Of a stretch of 64,000 nt of DNA, positions 56,304-64,000 are shown piece after piece; the first letter of the stretch is position 1; the number at the start of each line of letters is the position of its first letter. The notes below the pieces were generated by a model that made no database searches, was not told where the DNA came from, and saw only the letters and a list, made by a program, of their open reading frames with translations. The position numbers and the translations under genes are program-made. The stretch lies in the sequence record PP526941.1, one strand, 5' to 3'. The stretch comes from Escherichia phage vB_EcoM_ECO78.

Positions 56304-59300
56304 ATGGCTACTTTAAAACAAATACAATTTAAAAGAAGCAAAACCGCAGGTGCACGTCCTGCTGCTTCAGTATTAGCCGAAGGTGAATTGGCTATAAACT
56401 TAAAAGATAGAACACTTTTTACTAAAGATGATTCGGGAAATATCATTGATCTAGGTATTGCTAAAGGCGGTCAAATTGATGGAAATGTGACTATCAATGG
56501 TCTTTTAAGATTAAATGGGGATTATACACAAACTGGTGGAATGACCGTAAATGGACCTATTGGTTCTACTGAAGGCGTATCCGCCTTAGTTTTTAGATCT
56601 ATGCGAGGGTCATTTTACGCAAGAGCAACAAATGATACTTCCAATGCCCATCTTTGGTTTGAAAATACAAATGGATCAGAGAGAGGGGTTTTATATTCAA
56701 AACCACAGTCTGAAAATGAAGGCGTAATTACAATGCGTGTTCGTCAAGGAACCGCTGCGGGAGCTCAAAATTCAGAATTTCATTTCATTTCTACTGATGG
56801 CGGTATCTTCCAGGCACGCAAATTAACTGCTTTAACTTCTATTAGTACACCAACTATTAGTGTTAATTTAATTAATCATGATTCTAAAGCCTTTGGACAA
56901 TACGATTCGCAATCATTAGTTCAGTATGTTTATCCTGGAACTGGTGAAACTAACGGAGTAAACTATCTTCGTAAAGTTCGAGCTAAATCAGGTGGCACTA
57001 TGTGGCATGAGCTTTGTACTGCTCAGACTGGCCAGGCTGATGAAATGTCTTGGTGGACAGGTAATACTCCATCATCTAAACAATATGGCATTCGTAATGA
57101 CGGACGAATGGCAGGCCGTAATAGCCTTGCATTAGGTACATTCACTACGGGTTTCCCGTCTAGTGATTATGGTAACGTCGGTGTAATGGGCGATAAGTAT
57201 CTTGTTCTCGGTGACACTGTAACCGGTCTGAAATATATTAAGCAAGGTGTTTATGATTTAGTTGGTGGAGGTTATTCCGTTGCATCTGTTACTCCAGATA
57301 GTTTCCGTAGTACTCGTAAAGGTATATTTGGTCGCTCAGAAGACCAAGGTGCTACATGGAACATGCCTGGAAACAACGCCGCGTTTTTATCGGTTCAAAC
57401 ACAAGCTGATGAAAACACTGCTGGAGACGGCCAGACACATATTGGCTATAACTCAGGCGGTAAAATGAACCACTATTTCCGTGGTAAAGGCAAAACTAAT
57501 ATTAATACTCAAGAAGGCATGGAAGTTAACCCGGGTATTCTTAAACTAGTAACCGGTGCTAACAGTATTAGCTTTAACGCTGCAACAGGTAATATTGATT
57601 CTACATTAGCTTTTCGTCTTAATAAAGGTATAATTATTGATGGACCTGATAATCAGGGATTCCAATTTAATGCTCCGACGGCTGTAGATGGTACTAGAAG
57701 CATATACTGGAATAGTGGCACTCGCGCAGGTCAAAACAAAAACCCTGTTACAGTTAAAGTGTGGGGTAATTCATTTAACGCATCTGGTGATCGTAGTCGT
57801 GAAACCGTTTTTGAAGTAGCTGATGGGCAAGGTTACCATTTTTATTCTCAACGCGTAGCTCCTGCACCTGGTTCGACTGTCGGGCCTATTCAACTCCGAG
57901 TTAATGGTGGTTTATTAACTTCTGGTGGTATTACTGCTTCCGGTTCTATTGTTACTGAATCAAGTTTAGTTGCAAATAATGGATTATCTGTAAATGGTCA
58001 GGCTAAATTTGGCGGAACAGCAAACGCACTAAGAATTTGGAACGCTGAATATGGTGCTATTTTCCGTCGTTCGGAAAGTAACTTTTATATTATTCCAACC
58101 AATCAAAACGAAGGCGAAAGCGGAGACATTCACAGCTCTTTGAGACCTGTGAGAATAGGATTAAACGATGGCATGGTTGGGTTAGGAAGAGATTCTTTTA
58201 TAGTAGATCAAAATAATGCTTTAACTACTATAAACAGTAACTCTCGCATTAATGCCAACTTTAGAATGCAATTAGGACAAAATGCTTATATAGATATTGA
58301 GGCTTCTGATGGAATTCGCCCAACAGGTTGTGGTTCCTTTGCATCTCAGAATGACGTAAACGTCAGAGCTCCAATTTATATGAATATAGAGCGTACTGCT
58401 ACTTCTGAATATATTCCTATTGTTAAACAGCGTTATGTGCAAGGTGATAGCACTTATTCTATTGGGACATTAATTAATCAAGGAGATTTCCGTGTTCATT
58501 ACCGCCAAGGCACCGGTACGGGTGGCACTGATTTGAGTTGGGAATTCCGTCGCACAGGCGATTTCCGCGCGGCAGGTAAAATTATTGCTGGTGCTGCTAC
58601 TCTTGGCACTGATGGTAATATCACCGGTGGTTCTGGTAACTTTGCTAACCTGAATACCACATTAAATCGTAAGGTAAATTCCGGATTTGTAACATACGGT
58701 GCAACGGCCGGATGGTACAAATTCGCTACAGTAACGATGCCACAATCTACTTCTACTGTTTCATTTACTATAACTGGTGGTAAAGGATTTAATACCGGAC
58801 TGTTTACACAATGTGCTATAACAGAAATTGTTCTTCGTACTGGTAATGACCGCCCAGCAGGTTTAAACGCCGTGATGTATACCAGAACAGCGGCAGGTCT
58901 TACTGATATTGCTGTAGTTAATACCTCAGGAAATACATATGATGTCTATGTTGAAGCTGGCACTTATGCCAACCAATTAGCTTATACCTGGCATACAGTT
59001 GATAATGCTACCGTAGAAGTTATTGGCGCTTTTGGTCCTACTCAAGACCCGGTAGATTCTTTGCCGGCTAATTATGTTAAAGGCCAAGTAGCTAACATGC
59101 TTAACAACCTGGTAGACACAGGTAAAGTAAAACGTTATGTAGCAGATTCTGAAATTGCTATTAATAACCAAACGGGTCTTCGTATTACGAGTAATTATGA
59201 TAGATCAGGTTCTAATTCCGTTTTGTTTCGAAATGACGGTGGAAGCTTCTATATTTTACTGACTGACAAAAACTCTTCAGACGGCGATAATAAAGCAACT

Positions 59301-60227
59301 GAAGGTGATTGGAATGGAAAACGACCATTTTCAATTGATATGACTGCTGGTACTGTTCGTCTTGGCGAAAATACTTCTTTTAGTAAAGATGTTACTATTG
59401 ATGGAAACATTAATTCACGAGTTAAAGTTGTCGGACAGTGGAATGTTAGCTTTTCTGATATTTCAGATGTGACTCGTGACCGTTCTGCATTTTTAGTGAA
59501 TACGGGTGGCATTTCCAATACAAGTCAATCTTATTACCCGCTATTTTCTGGATACAGTTTTTTAACTGACGCGGGTTATCGCCAATCGTTTGAATTTGGA
59601 TGGTTAGGTGTTTCTGGTACTTGGCGTCAAGGTATTATTCGCATGCGTGGTGACAACGCATCGGGGCAACAGGCTCGTTGGACTTTTGATATGGATGGAA
59701 CATTTTATGCTCCTAAATTGGCTTGCGGTTCTACCGGTGCCCTCGGTATTAACACATCCAACGGATGGGGTGGTAACTCAATTGCAATTGGTGATAGCGA
59801 TACTGGTTTTAGACAAGTAGGCGATGGGCTTTTAGAAGCGTGGGCGAACAACGTTAAAGTTGTTAGATTCACTTCGAGCGAAGTTTATTCCGAGAAAAAC
59901 GTCAATGCTCCTAACGTTTATATTCGTTCTGATGTTCGCTTGAAATCTAATTTTAAACCTATTAAAAATGCGCTCGAAAGGGTTGAGCAACTTGATGGTT
60001 TAATCTATGACAAAGCTGAATATATAGGCGGTGAACCTGTTCAAACTGAAGCGGGTATTATAGCTCAAACGTTACAAGACGTTTTACCAGAAGCTGTCCG
60101 TGAATCAGAAGATAGCAAGGGTAATAAAATACTCACTGTTTCTTCTCAAGCCCAGATTGCTCTTCTGGTTGAAGCTGTGAAAACACTTTCTGCTCGTGTA
60201 AAAGAACTTGAATCTAAACTTATGTAA
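56304..60227 (+). CDS. 37: long tail fibre distal subunit gp37, T2-type, with C-terminal intramolecular chaperone domain
   Basis: 1307 aa; conserved N-terminus; C-terminal about 99 aa begin with the SDxRLK motif typical of autocleaving intramolecular chaperone (S74-like) domains. Confidence 0.9.
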
Positions 60228-60228
60228 A

Positions 60229-60246
60229 AGAGGGCTTCGGCCCTCT
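60229..60246 (+). terminator. GC hairpin (AGAGGGC-UUCG-GCCCUCU) between genes 37 and 38
   Basis: Perfect 7-bp stem with UUCG loop followed by AAGGAUUUUUA, which contains the gene 38 SD. Confidence 0.45.
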
Positions 60247-60257
60247 AAGGATTTTTA

Positions 60258-61043
60258 ATGGCAATTGTAGGTGTTCCTGGCTGGATTGGTGAATCTGCTG
60301 TGAATGAAACTGGACAACGTTGGATGGATGCTGCGATGAAAGCTGTTCGTGTTTCAGTTCCCGGCTGGATGAGCTCAATGGCTGGACAATCTAAAGAAAT
60401 TCATTATAGCATTGGTGCTAGCAATTCTTACAATAAAGACACTCTTATTAACTGGATGAAAGCACAGGGGTCTACTCCGGTAGTAATTACTATTACAGGA
60501 AATATTGTTTCTTCATCGACAGGTCAACCATGCTTAGATTTTCCTAGCTCATTAACTAATGCATACGTGACACTTAATATCAATTCAGGCGTGCATGTTT
60601 GGGGTCGCGGCGGGAATGGTGGAAATAACTCTGCTGGCGGAGCAGGAGGAACTGCAATAAATAACGGAATTGGAACTAGATTACGTATTAATAACAATGG
60701 TGTTATCGCAGGCGGCGGTGGCGGCGGTGGCGGCGGATACTACTCTCCTTTTTCACAAATGAGATTGACTTTTGGTGGAGGAGGCGGTCGTCCATTTGGT
60801 GCGGCTGGCGGGTCTGCTAATATGGAACAGGGTGCTACTGCTGGTACTATTTCTGCGCCCGGTAAAGGGTCTGTCAACGGTATCTATAATGGCGGGAATG
60901 GTGGTGATGCCGGTGCCGCAGGAGGTAAATGTAATATTCGCGGTCAAGGATCAGAATATAATGGCGGCGCTGCTGGTAAAGCTGTTACTGGTAATGCTCC
61001 AACTTGGACTAAAGTTGGTACAATATATGGTGCAAGAGTATAA
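60258..61043 (+). CDS. 38: T2-type receptor-recognising adhesin gp38 (glycine-rich motifs)
   Basis: 261 aa; C-terminal half built from glycine-rich tracts (GRGGNGGNNSAGGAGG, GGGGGGGGGY, FGGGGGRPFGAAGG, NGGNGGDAGAAGG) separated by short variable segments. Confidence 0.85.
   Translation: MAIVGVPGWIGESAVNETGQRWMDAAMKAVRVSVPGWMSSMAGQSKEIHYSIGASNSYNKDTLINWMKAQGSTPVVITITGNIVSSSTGQPCLDFPSSLTNAYVTLNINSGVHVWGRGGNGGNNSAGGAGGTAINNGIGTRLRINNNGVIAGGGGGGGGGYYSPFSQMRLTFGGGGGRPFGAAGGSANMEQGATAGTISAPGKGSVNGIYNGGNGGDAGAAGGKCNIRGQGSEYNGGAAGKAVTGNAPTWTKVGTIYGARV
60711..60737 (+). repeat. 9-bp tandem repeat (GGCGGCGGT x3) encoding a poly-glycine tract in gp38
   Basis: Three consecutive near-identical 9-mers read directly in the sequence. 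Confidence 0.8.
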
Positions 61044-61074: not shown

Positions 61075-61731
61075 ATGGCAGCACCTAGAATATCATTTTC
61101 GCCCTCTGATATTCTGTTGGGTGTTCTAGATCGCTTGTTCAAAGATAACGCTACCGGGAAGGTTCTTGCTTCCCGGGTAGCTGTCGTAATTCTTTTGTTT
61201 ATGATGGCGATTGTTTGGTATAGGGGAGATAGTTTCTTTGAGTACTATAAGCAATCAAAGTATGAAACATACAGTGAAATTATTGAAAAGGAAAGAAATG
61301 CACGCTTTGAATCTGTCGCCCTGGAACAACTCCAGATAGTTCATATATCATCTGAGGCAGACTTTAGTGCGGTGTATTCTTTCCGCCCTAAAAACTTAAA
61401 CTATTTTGTTGATATTATAGCATATGAAGGAAAATTACCTTCAACAATAAGTGAAAAATCACTTGGAGGATATCCTGTTGATAAAACTATGGATGAATAT
61501 ACAGTTCATTTAAATGGACGTCATTATTATTCCAACTCAAAATTTGCTTTTTTACCAACTAAAAAGCCTACTCCTGAAATAAATTACATGTACAGTTGTC
61601 CATATTTTAATTTGGATAATATCTATGCTGGAACGATAACCATGTACTGGTATAGAAATGATCATATAAGTAATGACCGCCTTGAATCAATATGTTCTCA
61701 GGCGGCCAGAATATTAGGAAGGGCTAAATAA
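61075..61731 (+). CDS. t: holin T
   Basis: 218 aa; N-terminal TM segment and large periplasmic domain; sequence recognised as the T4-type holin; AAAGGAGG SD. Confidence 0.92.
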   Translation: MAAPRISFSPSDILLGVLDRLFKDNATGKVLASRVAVVILLFMMAIVWYRGDSFFEYYKQSKYETYSEIIEKERNARFESVALEQLQIVHISSEADFSAVYSFRPKNLNYFVDIIAYEGKLPSTISEKSLGGYPVDKTMDEYTVHLNGRHYYSNSKFAFLPTKKPTPEINYMYSCPYFNLDNIYAGTITMYWYRNDHISNDRLESICSQAARILGRAK

Positions 61732-62004
61732 TTATTTGTTTGTATACATCTCTAGATATCGATATACACCCTCAAAACCCTCGTTGAATTCGTCGATGAG
61801 GGTTTTCTTATCTTCTTGAGTTAATTCAGAAACAATTTTACGGAATGAATTTTGATTTAACTTTCTACCTTCATGTGTTACTCCAATCTCATTCAGAAAT
61901 GCAATAAAATTAGCGCGATTCTCAACAATATCTTCTCGGGAAAATTTAATCAAAATAGACGCAACAGTAATAATTTCACGAACTGTATCAATGTTTTTAT
62001 TCAT
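61732..62004 (-). CDS. asiA: anti-sigma-70 factor AsiA
   Basis: 90 aa; N-terminus MNKNIDTVREIITVASILIKFSREDIVENRANFIAFLNEIG recognised as AsiA; convergent with t. Confidence 0.88.
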   Translation of the reverse strand: MNKNIDTVREIITVASILIKFSREDIVENRANFIAFLNEIGVTHEGRKLNQNSFRKIVSELTQEDKKTLIDEFNEGFEGVYRYLEMYTNK

Positions 62005-62016
62005 TAACTATACCAC

Positions 62017-62169
62017 TCAATTAGTTGACTTTGTTATAATATCATCAGACGCTTGATTTGTAAACTGGTCTGTGTTATTTTCTTCAAAAATTTTTTCTAC
62101 GAATTCCTTGAACGACTTACGTTCCTGAGCTACATTGTGCTCGATTACCTTTTCAAGATTATGACTCAT
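62017..62169 (-). CDS. small hypothetical protein (50 aa), ATGA-coupled to the upstream ORF; not in the supplied ORF track
   Basis: Hand translation MSHNLEKVIEHNVAQERKSFKEFVEKIFEENNTDQFTNQASDDIITKSTN; its ATG overlaps the stop of the 92-aa ORF. Confidence 0.4.
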   Translation of the reverse strand: MSHNLEKVIEHNVAQERKSFKEFVEKIFEENNTDQFTNQASDDIITKSTN

Positions 62170-62444
62170 TCGAAATAATCTTCAATTTCATAATCATGGA
62201 CATAAATCATTATAGTTTTTAATACATCATCGATACTTTTTCCTGGAGCTGGAATTACGTAGAAATATCCTGCTTTTGAGAGGTCTTTATAAGTTCCAAT
62301 CAAGAAATCATTATTCTCGAGATGTAGTTCTTCAACTAATTCATTAACAATTGAGTGGTATAAATTTGGTAGAAACTTATATAGCTTTTCTAGAATATCA
62401 ATTTTGATTGTGTATTGAACCACAGACTGAGAATCAATAATCAT
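62166..62444 (-). CDS. arn: probable Arn (anti-restriction nuclease, McrBC inhibitor)
   Basis: 92 aa acidic protein adjacent to asiA; assignment by length and synteny. Confidence 0.55.
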   Translation of the reverse strand: MIIDSQSVVQYTIKIDILEKLYKFLPNLYHSIVNELVEELHLENNDFLIGTYKDLSKAGYFYVIPAPGKSIDDVLKTIMIYVHDYEIEDYFE

Positions 62445-62527
62445 AGACCTTCCCCTTGTGTTTCTGTTTGCGATTAGATTCTTTAAACGCTTTCTTCTTA
62501 TCCTTATGAACAGAAGCTTTATTAAAA

Positions 62528-62746
62528 TTATGTTTTGCGACTAAATTGTTCATAGTGCTGAATTACCTCTCTTAAACATTTGCATGTGAATGAAAACTTT
62601 TTAGCTACACCACATTCAAATATATGTTCTCTTAAATCACGTGTATCGGTATATCCCATCTCAACAATAAAATGCCGTATTAGATTTTTATCTTTATCGT
62701 TAAGAGAATTAAAATAATCGGATTTTGAATTAATTTCCCTGGCCAA
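62528..62746 (-). CDS. hypothetical protein
   Basis: 72-aa ORF; Cys/His-containing (CGVAKKFSFTCKC). Confidence 0.45.
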   Translation of the reverse strand: MAREINSKSDYFNSLNDKDKNLIRHFIVEMGYTDTRDLREHIFECGVAKKFSFTCKCLREVIQHYEQFSRKT

Positions 62747-63026
62747 ATTGAATCACCTTCAGTTGACGTTTTAGTTCTTTTATCATTTCTTCGTTCATCG
62801 CAATATAAAGATCGCGTAAAGCAGGTTTTAGCATTCCATTTATTGGGGAACTAAATGGACATACATAATCTTTTCCTACGAGCTTTTTGGTGAATTCCAT
62901 ATTACAGAATTGAAATGCCGGTTCATTGGTATAAATTCCCCAATTAGTTGACATCATTTTATTAGCATATTCCAGTGCCTGGATTTGATTCGTAATTCCA
63001 TCAATTTGAAACTTTTTAATATTCAT
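62730..63026 (-). CDS. hypothetical protein
   Basis: 98-aa ORF. Confidence 0.45.
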   Translation of the reverse strand: MNIKKFQIDGITNQIQALEYANKMMSTNWGIYTNEPAFQFCNMEFTKKLVGKDYVCPFSSPINGMLKPALRDLYIAMNEEMIKELKRQLKVIQFGQGN

Positions 63027-63487
63027 TAGTAAAGGTCCTCAGAGTAAAGTTCTTTTTCACTACCACCACGTTCAATACGTACTTGTCCAGCGTAAGTTGC
63101 AATAATCATTGCTTCTTCACGTGTCCAATAATTACTATATTGGTCAATAAATCCTTGGTCATCATCACAAACTTGCTGAGTAACTAATTGAGGTTTAACT
63201 ACATCTAAAACTTCTGCCATATCTTTAGAATAATGACGAGCACCTGGAATAATAAGAGTTCGTCCATCTTTTAATTTAAAACGGTTGGCTGCGCAAACAA
63301 TTCGTCGTTGATACTTTTGGTTTTCATCCCAGTACGCAGTCTGCCAACAAATTTCAGGAACTTCTTTCAGAATATCTTCTTCTGTGCATTTATAACCATG
63401 TGCTTTAAATTTTTGAACAAGACTTTCTGGAGTCTCACGAGATAAAGGAACATTCAACATTTTTAAACGATTAATAAATGGGTTCAT
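63026..63487 (-). CDS. hypothetical protein
   Basis: 153-aa ORF, ATGA-coupled. Confidence 0.5.
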
Positions 63488-63813
63488 TTAAACCATCCTT
63501 TAATACGCTGCCACAAAGTTTTCTGCTGAGTTTTGTTAACACCAATTGAACGAATAACTGGTTGAGATTCCTGGAATTCTTTATAATCGGCAAGGTAAAT
63601 TTCGTAAGCTGCATCCGTAAATGAACTTATCGCTGCCATAAAATTATTGCGAATACCTACTGGAGCATCTTTACTTTCACGAATAATCATGTATTTACCA
63701 GTCTTAATCTTTACGATAGTTCCAAGATAAGCTCCATGGTACCAAATATCCCAACCCTCTTGAGTAGGTTCTGCGCAACGACGAAGTTCATTAACAATTT
63801 CTAACTTGTTCAT
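63484..63813 (-). CDS. hypothetical protein
   Basis: 109-aa ORF. Confidence 0.5.
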
Positions 63814-63823
63814 TATTTATTCC

Positions 63824-64000
63824 TCACAGTTCAGATGCTACGGTGATTACTGCTTCAATGTTTTCTGCCGAGCGTTTAATGTCAAGATACACATTACCGT
63901 TTTTAGCGATTTTACATGACATTCCGATGTCAGTAAATTTCTGAATATGATGTTCCATCATTTTATATCCAAAAATTCGCATATTTCCATTGTTGTTAAT
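63824..64000 (-). CDS. 3' end of a gene continuing beyond the window; possibly the C-terminus of MotA
   Basis: Open minus-strand frame to the window edge ending ...NGNVYLDIKRSAENIEAVITVASEL; MotA suggested only by synteny (asiA-arn-...-motA) and weak recollection. Confidence 0.35.
   Translation of the reverse strand: MNNNGNMRIFGYKMMEHHIQKFTDIGMSCKIAKNGNVYLDIKRSAENIEAVITVASEL

Follow-up and report, generated by a model that had tools for sequence, protein, structure and literature searches.

Small genes between motA and asiA in Escherichia phage vB_EcoM_ECO78 belong to the conserved arn cluster of T-even phages

The closest described relatives of the locus analysed here are the asiA.1, arn and arn.1-arn.4 genes of phage T4 (NC_000866, 161163-162833) and the "arn operon" of phage T2. 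In T2, the host sRNA ArcZ binds the operon mRNA at the 3' end of arn.2 and shields it from RNase E, an ArcZ defect lowers expression of the operon and is suppressed when mcrC is lost, and the authors propose a role in conflict for the other operon genes too (bioRxiv 10.64898/2026.06.19.733364). In T4, asiA.1 and arn.1-arn.4 fall in the "early" RNA class, non-zero LFQ values were obtained for AsiA.1, Arn.1, Arn.2, Arn.3 and Arn.4, and the Arn.2 and Arn.4 proteins were detected early in infection (PMC9697503, Tables S2-S4). The same five genes were all scored "Not Fit" by CRISPRi-ART (PMC11879866), and HIDEN-SEQ found insertions at 11 of 11 sites in asiA.1, 13 of 13 in arn.1, 21 of 22 in arn.2, 33 of 34 in arn.3 and 16 of 16 in arn.4 (10.1101/2025.11.20.689424). 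In that study the T4 library was also put up against several defence systems and against clinical strains, and the main text mentions none of the arn or asiA genes. On the evidence of these CRISPRi and transposon screens in T4, asiA.1 and arn.1-arn.4 are dispensable on laboratory E. coli (K-12); the literature found on them comprises one relevant functional paper (the T2 ArcZ preprint) and three data sets.

The window (the whole 64,000-nucleotide stretch of vB_EcoM_ECO78 DNA analysed, from PP526941.1) ends in a part of a Tequatrovirus (T2/T4-like) genome with 97.8% identity to phage JK1. DNA-level matches to its arn/asiA cluster were found in 642 phage records, the same genes are annotated in the same order in the T2, JK1 and T4 records, and the T4 cluster and T2 "arn operon" share with vB_EcoM_ECO78 the gene order, strand, overlaps and about 97% DNA identity. 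The cluster is real, expressed and already known, it is carried by every T4/T2-like phage, and this stretch is very probably the conserved prereplicative motA-asiA cluster of T-even phages, with the transcription and roles inferred below. Its features, in the direction of transcription, are as follows.

63824..64000, minus strand: 3' part of motA (middle-transcription activator), running past the window edge; 97-98% DNA identity to the motA annotated in JK1, T2 and T4.
63484..63813, minus strand: arn.4, 109-aa form; residues 1-109 match phrog_1594 (E = 6.5e-54).
63026..63487, minus strand: arn.3, 153 aa; phrog_839 (E = 5.3e-74), Pfam PF26092 "T4_Y16D".
62730..63026, minus strand: arn.2, 98 aa; residues 1-97 match phrog_1844 (E = 1.1e-50).
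62733..62742, minus strand: ArcZ pairing site CCAGGGAAAT, the exact reverse complement of nt 65-74 of MG1655 ArcZ.
62528..62746, minus strand: arn.1, long 72-aa form with TTG start; phrog_4452 (E = 4.9e-39).
62671..62675, minus strand: GCATT motif, the RNase E site proposed in T2, inside the long arn.1 frame.
62434..62553, minus strand: strongly basic 39-aa ORF; DUF7230 PF23876 (E = 1.2e-11), phrog_1359 (E = 5e-23).
62166..62444, minus strand: arn; DM_Arn PF22134 (E = 4.4e-54), phrog_3151.
62017..62169, minus strand: asiA.1, acidic 50-aa ORF; phrog_3762 (E = 9.6e-38).
62036..62064, minus strand: candidate early-type sigma-70 promoter (TTTACA, 17-nt spacer, TGaTATTAT).
61732..62004, minus strand: asiA, anti-sigma-70 factor and last gene of the unit; PF09010 (E = 1e-42).

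No Rfam families or tRNAs were found within 61500-64000. A preliminary description had listed ORFs of 50, 72, 98, 153 and 109 aa at 62017-62169, 62528-62746, 62730-63026, 63026-63487 and 63484-63813, and all five were found at these positions, as was the overlap (ATGA) of the 50-aa ORF's ATG with the stop codon of arn; the list missed the 39-aa ORF, and its 72-aa ORF starts with TTG. AsiA and Arn, named as bracketing genes, were recovered by their Pfam matches, and MotA by synteny with annotated records. The ORFs were said to lie downstream of asiA, but all are on the minus strand and hence transcriptionally upstream of it. The 50-aa ORF, described as unannotated, is asiA.1 (NP_049867) in T4 and is annotated in T2, JK1 and many other records. 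Nor are the remaining ORFs novel, each being a named T4 gene or a member of a PHROG family: asiA.1 and the Arn.1-4 ORFs are orthologues of named T4 genes, and all cluster ORFs match PHROG families with E of about 1e-23 or below.

Selection on the ORFs was assessed by pN/pS and codon-position statistics in 19-27 related phage loci. Variation in the four larger ORFs (arn.1-arn.4) was mostly at the third codon position, and pN/pS lay between 0.03 and 0.20 for arn.4 (0.10 overall and 0.04 for its N-terminal 41 codons), arn.3 (0.20), arn.2 (0.14), arn.1, the 39-aa ORF (0.03), arn (0.07) and asiA (0.03), which for arn.1-arn.4 is strong purifying selection. The ORFs of asiA.1 and arn.1-arn.4 are all under purifying selection, with the exception of the tail of AsiA.1. 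The AT-rich sequence, the mechanical making of ORF lists and the spotting of the 50-aa ORF by eye would all suit an explanation of these frames as chance openings rather than genes, but the codon-position bias and pN/pS values, the conservation across genera, the PHROG families and the mass-spectrometric detection in T4 leave it with practically no probability, and it was rejected.

The gene order on the minus strand is motA, arn.4, arn.3, arn.2, arn.1, the 39-aa ORF, arn, asiA.1 and asiA, and since neighbouring genes are separated by gaps of 0-12 nt or overlap by 1-26 nt, most are probably translationally coupled. Transcription would start at an early promoter that lies upstream of motA, outside the window, and continue through the whole cluster, and asiA would be boosted by a second early-type promoter inside asiA.1. 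The latter is the region's best promoter match (62036..62064; 10/12 plus an extended -10), its hexamers are nearly invariant across loci and lie within the 3' third of asiA.1, and it agrees with the -35, TGn and -10 elements in the description of T4 early promoters by Hinton (2010). From the sequence we infer both this promoter, which probably drives asiA, and the co-transcription of the cluster with motA. No MotA-box middle promoter was found on the minus strand of the cluster, and none is catalogued for the corresponding region of T4.

AsiA.1 aligns over its full length (residues 1-50) with positions 1-50 of the 50-position phrog_3762 profile and has two substitutions relative to its 50-residue T4 counterpart (K18E, T32Y). 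It matches 484 phage records, 482 of them at 90-100% identity, and the family is limited to a few T-even genera (29 clusters). The gene sits between arn and asiA on the same strand, a layout identical in T4, T2 and JK1, with its ATG overlapping the arn stop codon and its end 12 nt before the asiA ATG, over the asiA Shine-Dalgarno sequence. The T4 orthologue (Q9T0T0) is translated during infection, LC-MS having given LFQ values for it in 13 samples in a row (PMC9697503, Table S3). Its pN/pS was 0.58 overall, with an unusually low pS (0.045), and 0.25 for codons 1-30, while the variable sites in codons 31-50 were nonsynonymous in eight cases and synonymous in none. The gene is frameshifted in T2 LC348380 and phage a15, and truncated variants of 33-45 aa occur. 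In a15 the frameshift falls within a homopolymer (A6/A7), so that a sequencing error may be behind it.

Given this overall pN/pS and the frameshifts and truncations, AsiA.1 may have little function at the protein level. Taken further, asiA.1 would be mainly a by-product of sequence acting in cis (the early promoter and 5' leader of asiA, and the delivery of ribosomes on long transcripts) and its peptide functionless, as could be read from the eight out of eight nonsynonymous C-terminal sites, the low pS, the position of the nearly invariant promoter hexamers in codons 36-37 and 43-45, the disrupted alleles, the narrowness of the family, and the tolerance of insertions at every transposon site together with a CRISPRi knock-down without fitness effect. 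Yet codons 1-30 are under purifying selection, an N-terminal motif, MSHNL(E/Q)N...ER..F.EF, is kept in the Mosigvirus and Gaprivervirus positional homologues although their asiA.1-arn overlap geometry differs from that of Tequatrovirus, the protein is detectable in T4 infection and one of the two frameshifts may not be genuine, so we hold a purely cis-acting asiA.1 to be somewhat unlikely. We favour AsiA.1 being a small acidic protein whose functional part would be the conserved N-terminal 30 or so residues, the C-terminal 20 codons being shaped by the overlapping asiA promoter rather than by protein function.

In the T4 and T2 references Arn.1 consists of the last 43 codons only (62528-62659), whereas the conserved protein has 72 aa. 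The match to phrog_4452 extends over residues 1-72, including the N-terminal 29, and the variable sites in this 29-codon extension are all synonymous (10 in a 19-sequence alignment and 11 in a larger set), so that the extension peptide is identical in 19 of 19 loci, T4 and T2 among them; EINSKSDYFNSLNDK is an example peptide from residues 2-29. The TTG start is kept in 26 of 26 loci and is preceded, 6 nt upstream, by the Shine-Dalgarno sequence GAAGGTGA. Full-length Arn.1 is also found in Mosigvirus (all 72 aa at 74% identity, with an ATG start and AAGGA) and in L032, where identity is 61% and Leu takes the place of the internal Met. These comparisons indicate that Arn.1 is a protein of 72 aa with a TTG start, from which it follows that the 70 nt published as an "intergenic region" in the T2 arn operon are coding.

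This reading bears on the ArcZ site described for T2, which is intact and matches exactly in vB_EcoM_ECO78, lying both at the 3' end of arn.2 (+285 to +294) and on codons 2-5 of the long arn.1. All 25 loci from Tequatrovirus contain the exact 10-mer, whereas those from Mosigvirus, Gaprivervirus and L032 lack it. It is this exact 10-mer seed match that serves as our ArcZ evidence; RNAduplex predictions for the whole processed ArcZ against the region were no better than for shuffled targets. The GCATT motif stands 11 nt upstream of the internal arn.1 ATG (62659), as in the T2 preprint (bioRxiv 10.64898/2026.06.19.733364). With the "intergenic region" coding and the ArcZ site on arn.1 codons 2-5, ArcZ protection may depend on how translation of arn.1 is controlled, with ribosomes shielding the RNase E site, and not be a purely structural effect on an untranslated spacer.

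Arn.4 has 109 aa and not 68: its start codon is ATG in vB_EcoM_ECO78 and ATA in the T4 reference, and it is because of this replacement at the start of the 109-aa form that T4 carries a 68-aa annotation. The arn.4 of T2 LC348380 has a frameshift. Arn.4 has 55 homologue clusters, its N-terminal 41 residues are the best conserved, and its homologues carry a precomputed PF26821 annotation. Arn.2 is only 38-40% identical in Mosigvirus and Gaprivervirus, and arn.2 was not detected by tblastn in the L032 locus.

The homologues of Arn.3 all carry PF26092, an assignment taken from their precomputed Pfam annotation, the model being outside the local Pfam scan. Arn.3 is in essence the T4 founder of the family, and other members share with it a C-terminal core of ~95 aa with RH, QGF.D and LFSEDLY motifs. 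Many are stand-alone proteins of 83-110 aa while others have unrelated N-terminal extensions and reach 434 aa, and PDB sequence and fold searches revealed none with a known function or solved structure. Ten long homologues inspected for fusions of the core had no Pfam domain and matched phrog_839 only. The core domain occurs in 3340 clusters (50% identity). The invariant residues of Arn.3 are R61, A66, A67, R69, R84, H85, Q111, G112, F113, D115, Y120, R123 and Q135. Two homologues, one from a jumbo phage of Serratia and one from a Pectobacterium phage, are surrounded by small hypothetical genes only; genes for dUTPase, MazG, NADAR and HNH proteins occur in the vicinity, but a conserved partner was not seen.

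Neither the AF2 model of Arn.3 (pLDDT 88; best PDB Foldseek E-value 0.14) nor that of Arn.4 (pLDDT 81.5; best 0.32) matched a fold in the PDB, TM-scores being at most 0.32. Weak matches of the Arn.3 model (E = 2e-3 to 4e-2, TM about 0.35) were to segments of proteins that carry the name "large polyvalent protein associated domain-containing", and this name may derive from other domains in them. Searching the PDB by sequence with Arn.2, with Arn.3 (as a single sequence and as a profile) and with Arn.4 gave nothing below E = 0.07. The preliminary description had recognised no motifs in the ORFs, and the Pfam, NCBIfam, PADLOC and PDB sequence searches agree with it: AsiA.1 and Arn.1-4 found nothing significant in Pfam, NCBIfam, PADLOC or the PHROGs annotation, and the 72-, 98-, 153- and 109-aa ORFs (Arn.1-4) match no characterised protein. 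With this result and with T4 AsiA.1 translated, neither of the two outcomes that the preliminary description had named as refuting it was observed. Sub-threshold domain matches such as those to Prok-E2_B (E = 0.053), PD-T4-9_B (0.0049) and REase_II (0.0033) were discarded, being far below the curated cut-offs where these exist. With its compact ~95-aa T4_Y16D domain, a confidently predicted fold that has no neighbour in the PDB and an invariant set of Arg, His, Gln and Asp residues, Arn.3 could represent a novel type of counter-defence module. Its target might be a nucleotide or nucleic acid, which it would bind as a ligand or act on as an enzyme in a new way, and such domains are possibly also modules of phage polyvalent proteins. 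Both this reading of Arn.3 and that of ArcZ protection through arn.1 translation are, in our estimate, rather unlikely.

The T4 sequence contains the 39-aa ORF too, although the reference annotation leaves it out. The ORF overlaps the 3' end of arn.1 by 26 nt and the start of arn by 11 nt, has a pI of 10.2 and a charge of +9, and matches DUF7230 over its full length with 44.9 bits (gathering threshold 27). DUF7230/phrog_1359 is a family without known function, and related PHROG families share its first 25-29 residues only. With hits in 1196 phage records by tblastn, covering many enterobacterial T4-like genera, no other gene in the cluster is as widely conserved as this one, and only two distinct proteins occur in 26 loci. 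There are no paralogues elsewhere in the window. A role in ArfA-like ribosome rescue was considered but found no support, a one-to-one BLASTP alignment with an approximate ArfA query covering 13 residues at E = 0.2, and Pfam giving no ArfA match at E <= 1.

Could these proteins modulate phage or host gene expression, binding nucleic acids in transcription, RNA decay or translation, rather than act in defence? Early expression from a position between the transcription factor genes motA and asiA, the extreme basicity of the 39-aa ORF and the basic character of Arn.1, Arn.2 and Arn.4 would be in keeping with this, and Arg, His and Gln abound at the invariant positions of Arn.3, a composition that may suit phosphate or nucleotide binding. 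However, no DNA- or RNA-binding family was matched, the ArfA resemblance is unsupported, and knock-down and insertion mutants have no growth defect, making such a role distinctly unlikely.

Arn itself, a DNA-mimic inhibitor of McrBC with a charge of -9.2, matches DM_Arn with 181.2 bits (gathering threshold 26) and is the only member of the operon with a known target. Arn has been reported to inhibit McrBC on its own. Among AsiA.1, Arn.1-4 and the 39-aa ORF, Pfam gave no DM_Arn match. AsiA.1 resembles Arn in being small, acidic (charge -4.3) and encoded in the same operon, whereas Arn.1, Arn.2, Arn.4 and the 39-aa ORF are basic and therefore cannot be DNA mimics of the Arn kind. It might nevertheless be argued that Arn.1-4, the 39-aa ORF and AsiA.1 serve Arn as subunits or helpers and that the operon is one device against McrBC (type IV restriction): the genes share a single transcript and are tightly coupled with Arn among them, the +9 39-aa ORF lies directly upstream of, and overlaps, the -9 Arn, and in T2 the ArcZ defect is suppressed by loss of mcrC. 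Besides this reported action of Arn alone, the differing phyletic distributions of the genes speak against this. The 39-aa ORF is in 1196 phage records compared to 484 for AsiA.1, by tblastn the Gaprivervirus locus gave no hit for arn.1 and L032 none for arn.2, and the 3340 clusters with the Arn.3 domain include Pectobacterium phages and a 274-kb Serratia phage, where the other cluster proteins were not found within about 5 kb of it. A single device of this kind is therefore highly improbable.

The reading we prefer is that the uncharacterised proteins of the cluster would be accessory factors for host takeover or counter-defence whose effect is confined to certain hosts, and to this we give somewhat less than an even chance. 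A host-modulating or anti-restriction role had been suggested for these ORFs from their neighbours, which is a guess by association. Arn as a neighbour, the suggestion of the T2 authors and the matches of Arn.3 to polyvalent proteins point weakly to a role in conflict. No homology to a characterised defence-system inhibitor was found for AsiA.1 and Arn.1-4 by sequence, or by fold for Arn.3 and Arn.4, and the database labels "anti-restriction nuclease" and "anti-sigma factor" on these ORFs appear to have been carried over from gene names, not from experiments.

As these are catalogued T4 genes, for which the proteomic, homology and structure checks that had been proposed already exist or were run here, the locus has little value as a discovery in itself. 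What emerges is that the T4 and T2 references are in error or incomplete at three points, with Arn.1 72 aa and not 43, Arn.4 109 aa and not 68, and the 39-aa DUF7230 ORF missing in T4, and these faults carry over into proteomic databases and into the CRISPRi and transposon tables compiled per gene and affect how the 2026 ArcZ-arn study is read. Arn.3 and the 39-aa ORF, as the best conserved members of the cluster, are the best candidates for functional work, which bears on the roles of the roughly 130 uncharacterised genes of T4.

Over its last 8 kb the window carries sequence of a T2/T4-like phage (Tequatrovirus), and a megablast search with 61700-64000 matched 642 phage records, the top hit being Escherichia phage JK1 at 97.8% identity, with T2 and T4 about 97% identical over the same stretch. 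The small ORFs flagged here are real but ordinary: they belong to the arn/asiA cluster already known from T-even phages, where all of them are catalogued. The gene order motA, arn.4, arn.3, arn.2, arn.1, small ORF, arn, asiA.1, asiA was found in all annotated records. Each ORF of the cluster had a PHROGs family match at E <= 1e-23, neighbouring genes either share 1-26 nt or stand no more than 12 nt apart, and a Shine-Dalgarno sequence lies ahead of most of them.

Genes of the arn/asiA cluster, with pN/pS from substitutions tallied by codon position and type in 19-27 Tequatrovirus loci (phage, IMG/VR and metagenome collections)
61732-62004, minus strand: asiA; Pfam AsiA, 1e-42; pN/pS 0.03
62017-62169, minus strand: asiA.1; PHROGs family; pN/pS 0.58
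62166-62444, minus strand: arn; Pfam DM_Arn, 4.4e-54; pN/pS 0.07
62434-62553, minus strand: 39-aa ORF; Pfam DUF7230, phrog_1359; pN/pS 0.03
62528-62746, minus strand: arn.1; PHROGs family; pN/pS 0.03 (72-aa frame)
62730-63026, minus strand: arn.2; PHROGs family; pN/pS 0.14
63026-63487, minus strand: arn.3; PHROGs family; pN/pS 0.20
63484-63813, minus strand: arn.4; PHROGs family; pN/pS 0.10
63824 to window edge, minus strand: motA; by order in annotated records

The five ORFs of the preliminary description (50, 72, 98, 153 and 109 aa; asiA.1 and arn.1 to arn.4) exist at those lengths, the AsiA and Arn named beside them are confirmed by the Pfam matches listed, and the 50-aa ORF does overlap the arn stop with its start (ATGA). 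All real genes of the stretch lie on the minus strand and so, in the order in which they are read, the ORFs described as downstream of asiA are upstream of it. The 50-aa ORF had been taken as unannotated and is asiA.1 in the T4 reference (NP_049867), T2 and many other records, while the 39-aa ORF at 62434-62553 had been overlooked and the TTG start of the 72-aa ORF had gone unmentioned. Variation is mostly third-position in every cluster ORF except asiA.1. In three RB14/RB32-type loci (L008, L016, L017) arn.4 and arn.3 are separated by an additional 51-aa ORF, RB32ORF252c, and arn.3 is diverged at its 5' end.

The plus strand ahead of the cluster carries gp37, a gp38 adhesin of T2 type and the t holin. 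Within 56304-61043 are gp37 (1307 aa) and the Gly-rich gp38 (261 aa); JK1 and T2 annotations give gp38 as a tail-fibre adhesin, which makes the receptor-binding module one of T2/T6 type and not T4 type. A strong terminator-like hairpin (plus strand, 61774-61806), whose 14 pairs run into a T-rich tail, is placed about 40 nt past the t stop, inside the 3' end of asiA, which is convergent with t, and probably ends the late t transcript; a comparable terminator is annotated in phage ASO78A.

Published T4 data settle the translation of the orthologues of the five ORFs. The proteomic check proposed for the 50-aa ORF counts as done, with a positive result, on T4 AsiA.1 (Q9T0T0), which differs at 2 of 50 residues: Wolfram-Schauerte et al. 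(PMC9697503) list it in their time-resolved T4 proteome, with non-zero LFQ in 13 consecutive samples from partway into the time course. Arn.1, Arn.2, Arn.3 and Arn.4 were also detected there, with early onset for the last three, and the RNAs of all five genes were classed as 'early' (PMC9697503). No MotA-box middle promoter was found on the coding strand of the cluster, none of the T4 middle promoters listed by Hinton lies between 153 kb and 165 kb, and motA and arn.4 are only 10 nt apart; on the simplest reading the cluster would be transcribed by read-through from the early motA promoter, beyond the window edge, with an internal early-type promoter within asiA.1 additionally serving asiA.

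Nothing else in the region matches a sigma-70-type promoter as well as that predicted one (TTTACA, 17 nt, TGaTATTAT; 62064-62036). It lies inside the 3' part of asiA.1, has the -35, TGn and -10 elements seen in T4 early promoters, and its end is 32 nt ahead of the asiA ATG. AsiA.1 itself is two-part: codons 1-30 have a pN/pS of 0.25, while all 8 variable sites (8/8) in codons 31-50 are nonsynonymous. Over the whole gene variable sites fall 7/6/6 on codon positions 1/2/3, and synonymous divergence is unusually low at 0.045. The Mosigvirus protein at the corresponding position (53 aa) and its Gaprivervirus counterpart (54 aa), both homologues, have only the N-terminus, MSHNL(E/Q)N...ER..F.EF, in common with AsiA.1. 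A profile search gave only 29 clusters, all of them from T-even-like coliphages, with truncation to 33-45 aa in some. Frameshifts affect asiA.1 in phage a15 (L014; one additional A in an A6 run) and its end, as well as arn.4, in T2 LC348380 (L001; 2-nt deletions), and these may be true variants or sequencing errors.

In the laboratory the T4 orthologues of the five ORFs are expressed and dispensable. The CRISPRi-ART knock-down screen called asiA.1, arn and arn.1-4 'Not Fit', meaning that knock-down had no effect (PMC11879866), and the HIDEN-SEQ transposon study recovered insertions at 11/11 sites in asiA.1, 13/13 in arn.1, 21/22 in arn.2, 33/34 in arn.3 and 16/16 in arn.4, calling these genes non-essential and asiA essential (10.1101/2025.11.20.689424). 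In the main text of that transposon study, where the library was challenged with several defence systems and clinical strains, these genes are not mentioned. In public databases, Arn.1, Arn.3 and Arn.4 often go under the name 'anti-restriction nuclease' and AsiA.1 under 'anti-sigma factor', names that appear to come from the gene designations arn.N and asiA.1 and not from experiments. The suggestion that the candidate ORFs might have counter-defence or host-modulating roles is a reasonable idea, common to the recent literature.

As the preliminary description held, the unknown ORFs are free of recognisable motifs, Pfam, NCBIfam, PADLOC and PDB sequence searches yielding nothing significant. 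AlphaFold models from homologue alignments were confident (pLDDT 88 for Arn.3, 81.5 for Arn.4), and a PDB search gave no fold neighbours for either (best E 0.14 and 0.32, TM-scores <=0.32). Arn.3 is the most informative of the unknowns, with a domain in its C-terminal ~95 residues (invariant R61, R69, R84, H85, Q111, G112, F113, D115, Y120, R123 and Q135) and an LFSEDLY motif at the C-terminus. A profile search of 1.84 billion representatives gave 3340 clusters, 1353 at E <= 1e-10; many homologues are stand-alone (83-110 aa), a few have long N-terminal extensions without a Pfam domain, and the family was recently named T4_Y16D in Pfam, for the T4 protein. Against a viral structure library the Arn.3 model matched uncharacterised phage proteins and, weakly, three 'large polyvalent protein associated domain-containing' proteins (E = 2e-3 to 4e-2). 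Phage polyvalent proteins are linked to phage-host conflict, and the modelled resemblance is a lead, not a result.

The gene models of the T4 reference (L010) differ from those predicted here. Arn.4 is, from the sequences, a 109-aa protein, found in 24/25 loci, whose N-terminal 41 residues (63691-63813, minus strand) are its best-conserved part (pN/pS 0.04); only the T4 reference has ATA where others have the ATG start, and just the last 68 codons are annotated there as a result. The strongly basic 39-aa ORF (pI 10.2) overlaps the start of arn, whose product is strongly acidic (charge -9). No other cluster member is as widely conserved: tblastn matched this ORF in 1196 phage records, from T4-like phages of Escherichia, Klebsiella, Enterobacter, Yersinia, Proteus and Aeromonas, and just 2 protein variants occur among 26 Tequatrovirus loci. 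The 39-aa ORF lacks annotation in the T4 reference and so is presumably missing from analyses using that annotation.

Arn.1 is annotated as 43 aa in the T4 and T2 references, whereas coding signals argue that it is 72 aa and that the "intergenic" stretch 62660-62746 between arn.2 and arn.1 is coding. An open frame begins at a TTG (62746) that has GAAGGTGA upstream at 6-nt spacing; the TTG is kept in 26/26 loci, variable sites in the 29 additional codons (10-11 by sequence set) are synonymous only, and the 29-residue extension is identical in 19/19 loci, T4 and T2 included. Mosigvirus Arn.1 is likewise 72 aa (74% identity) and begins with ATG behind an AAGGA Shine-Dalgarno sequence. In L032, a more distant locus (61% identity), a 43-aa Arn.1 is impossible because the 'internal' Met is Leu. 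The sole functional study of the arn operon, a 2026 T2 preprint, handles arn.4 to arn as one transcript, treats the 70 nt ahead of the 43-aa arn.1 as an intergenic region, reports pairing of ArcZ, an sRNA of the host, with arn.2 at +285 to +294 and shielding of the mRNA from RNase E by ArcZ, and considers the functions of arn.1-4 'conceivably' counter-defence (10.64898/2026.06.19.733364). The pairing site, CCAGGGAAAT, was found at 62742-62733 on the minus strand, exactly complementary to E. coli K-12 ArcZ nucleotides 65-74, and the exact 10-mer occurs in 25/25 Tequatrovirus loci compared and is absent in the Mosigvirus, Gaprivervirus and L032 loci. With Arn.1 starting at TTG 62746, the long frame would thus take in the ArcZ site (62733-62742), at codons 2-5, as well as GCATT (62675-62671), the proposed RNase E motif.

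Of most use are the corrected annotations of Arn.1, Arn.4 and the 39-aa ORF, the two-part nature of AsiA.1 and the flagging of Arn.3 as a widespread domain whose predicted fold has no PDB match. A long Arn.1 frame running over both the ArcZ site and the RNase E motif may alter how the ArcZ effect is interpreted.
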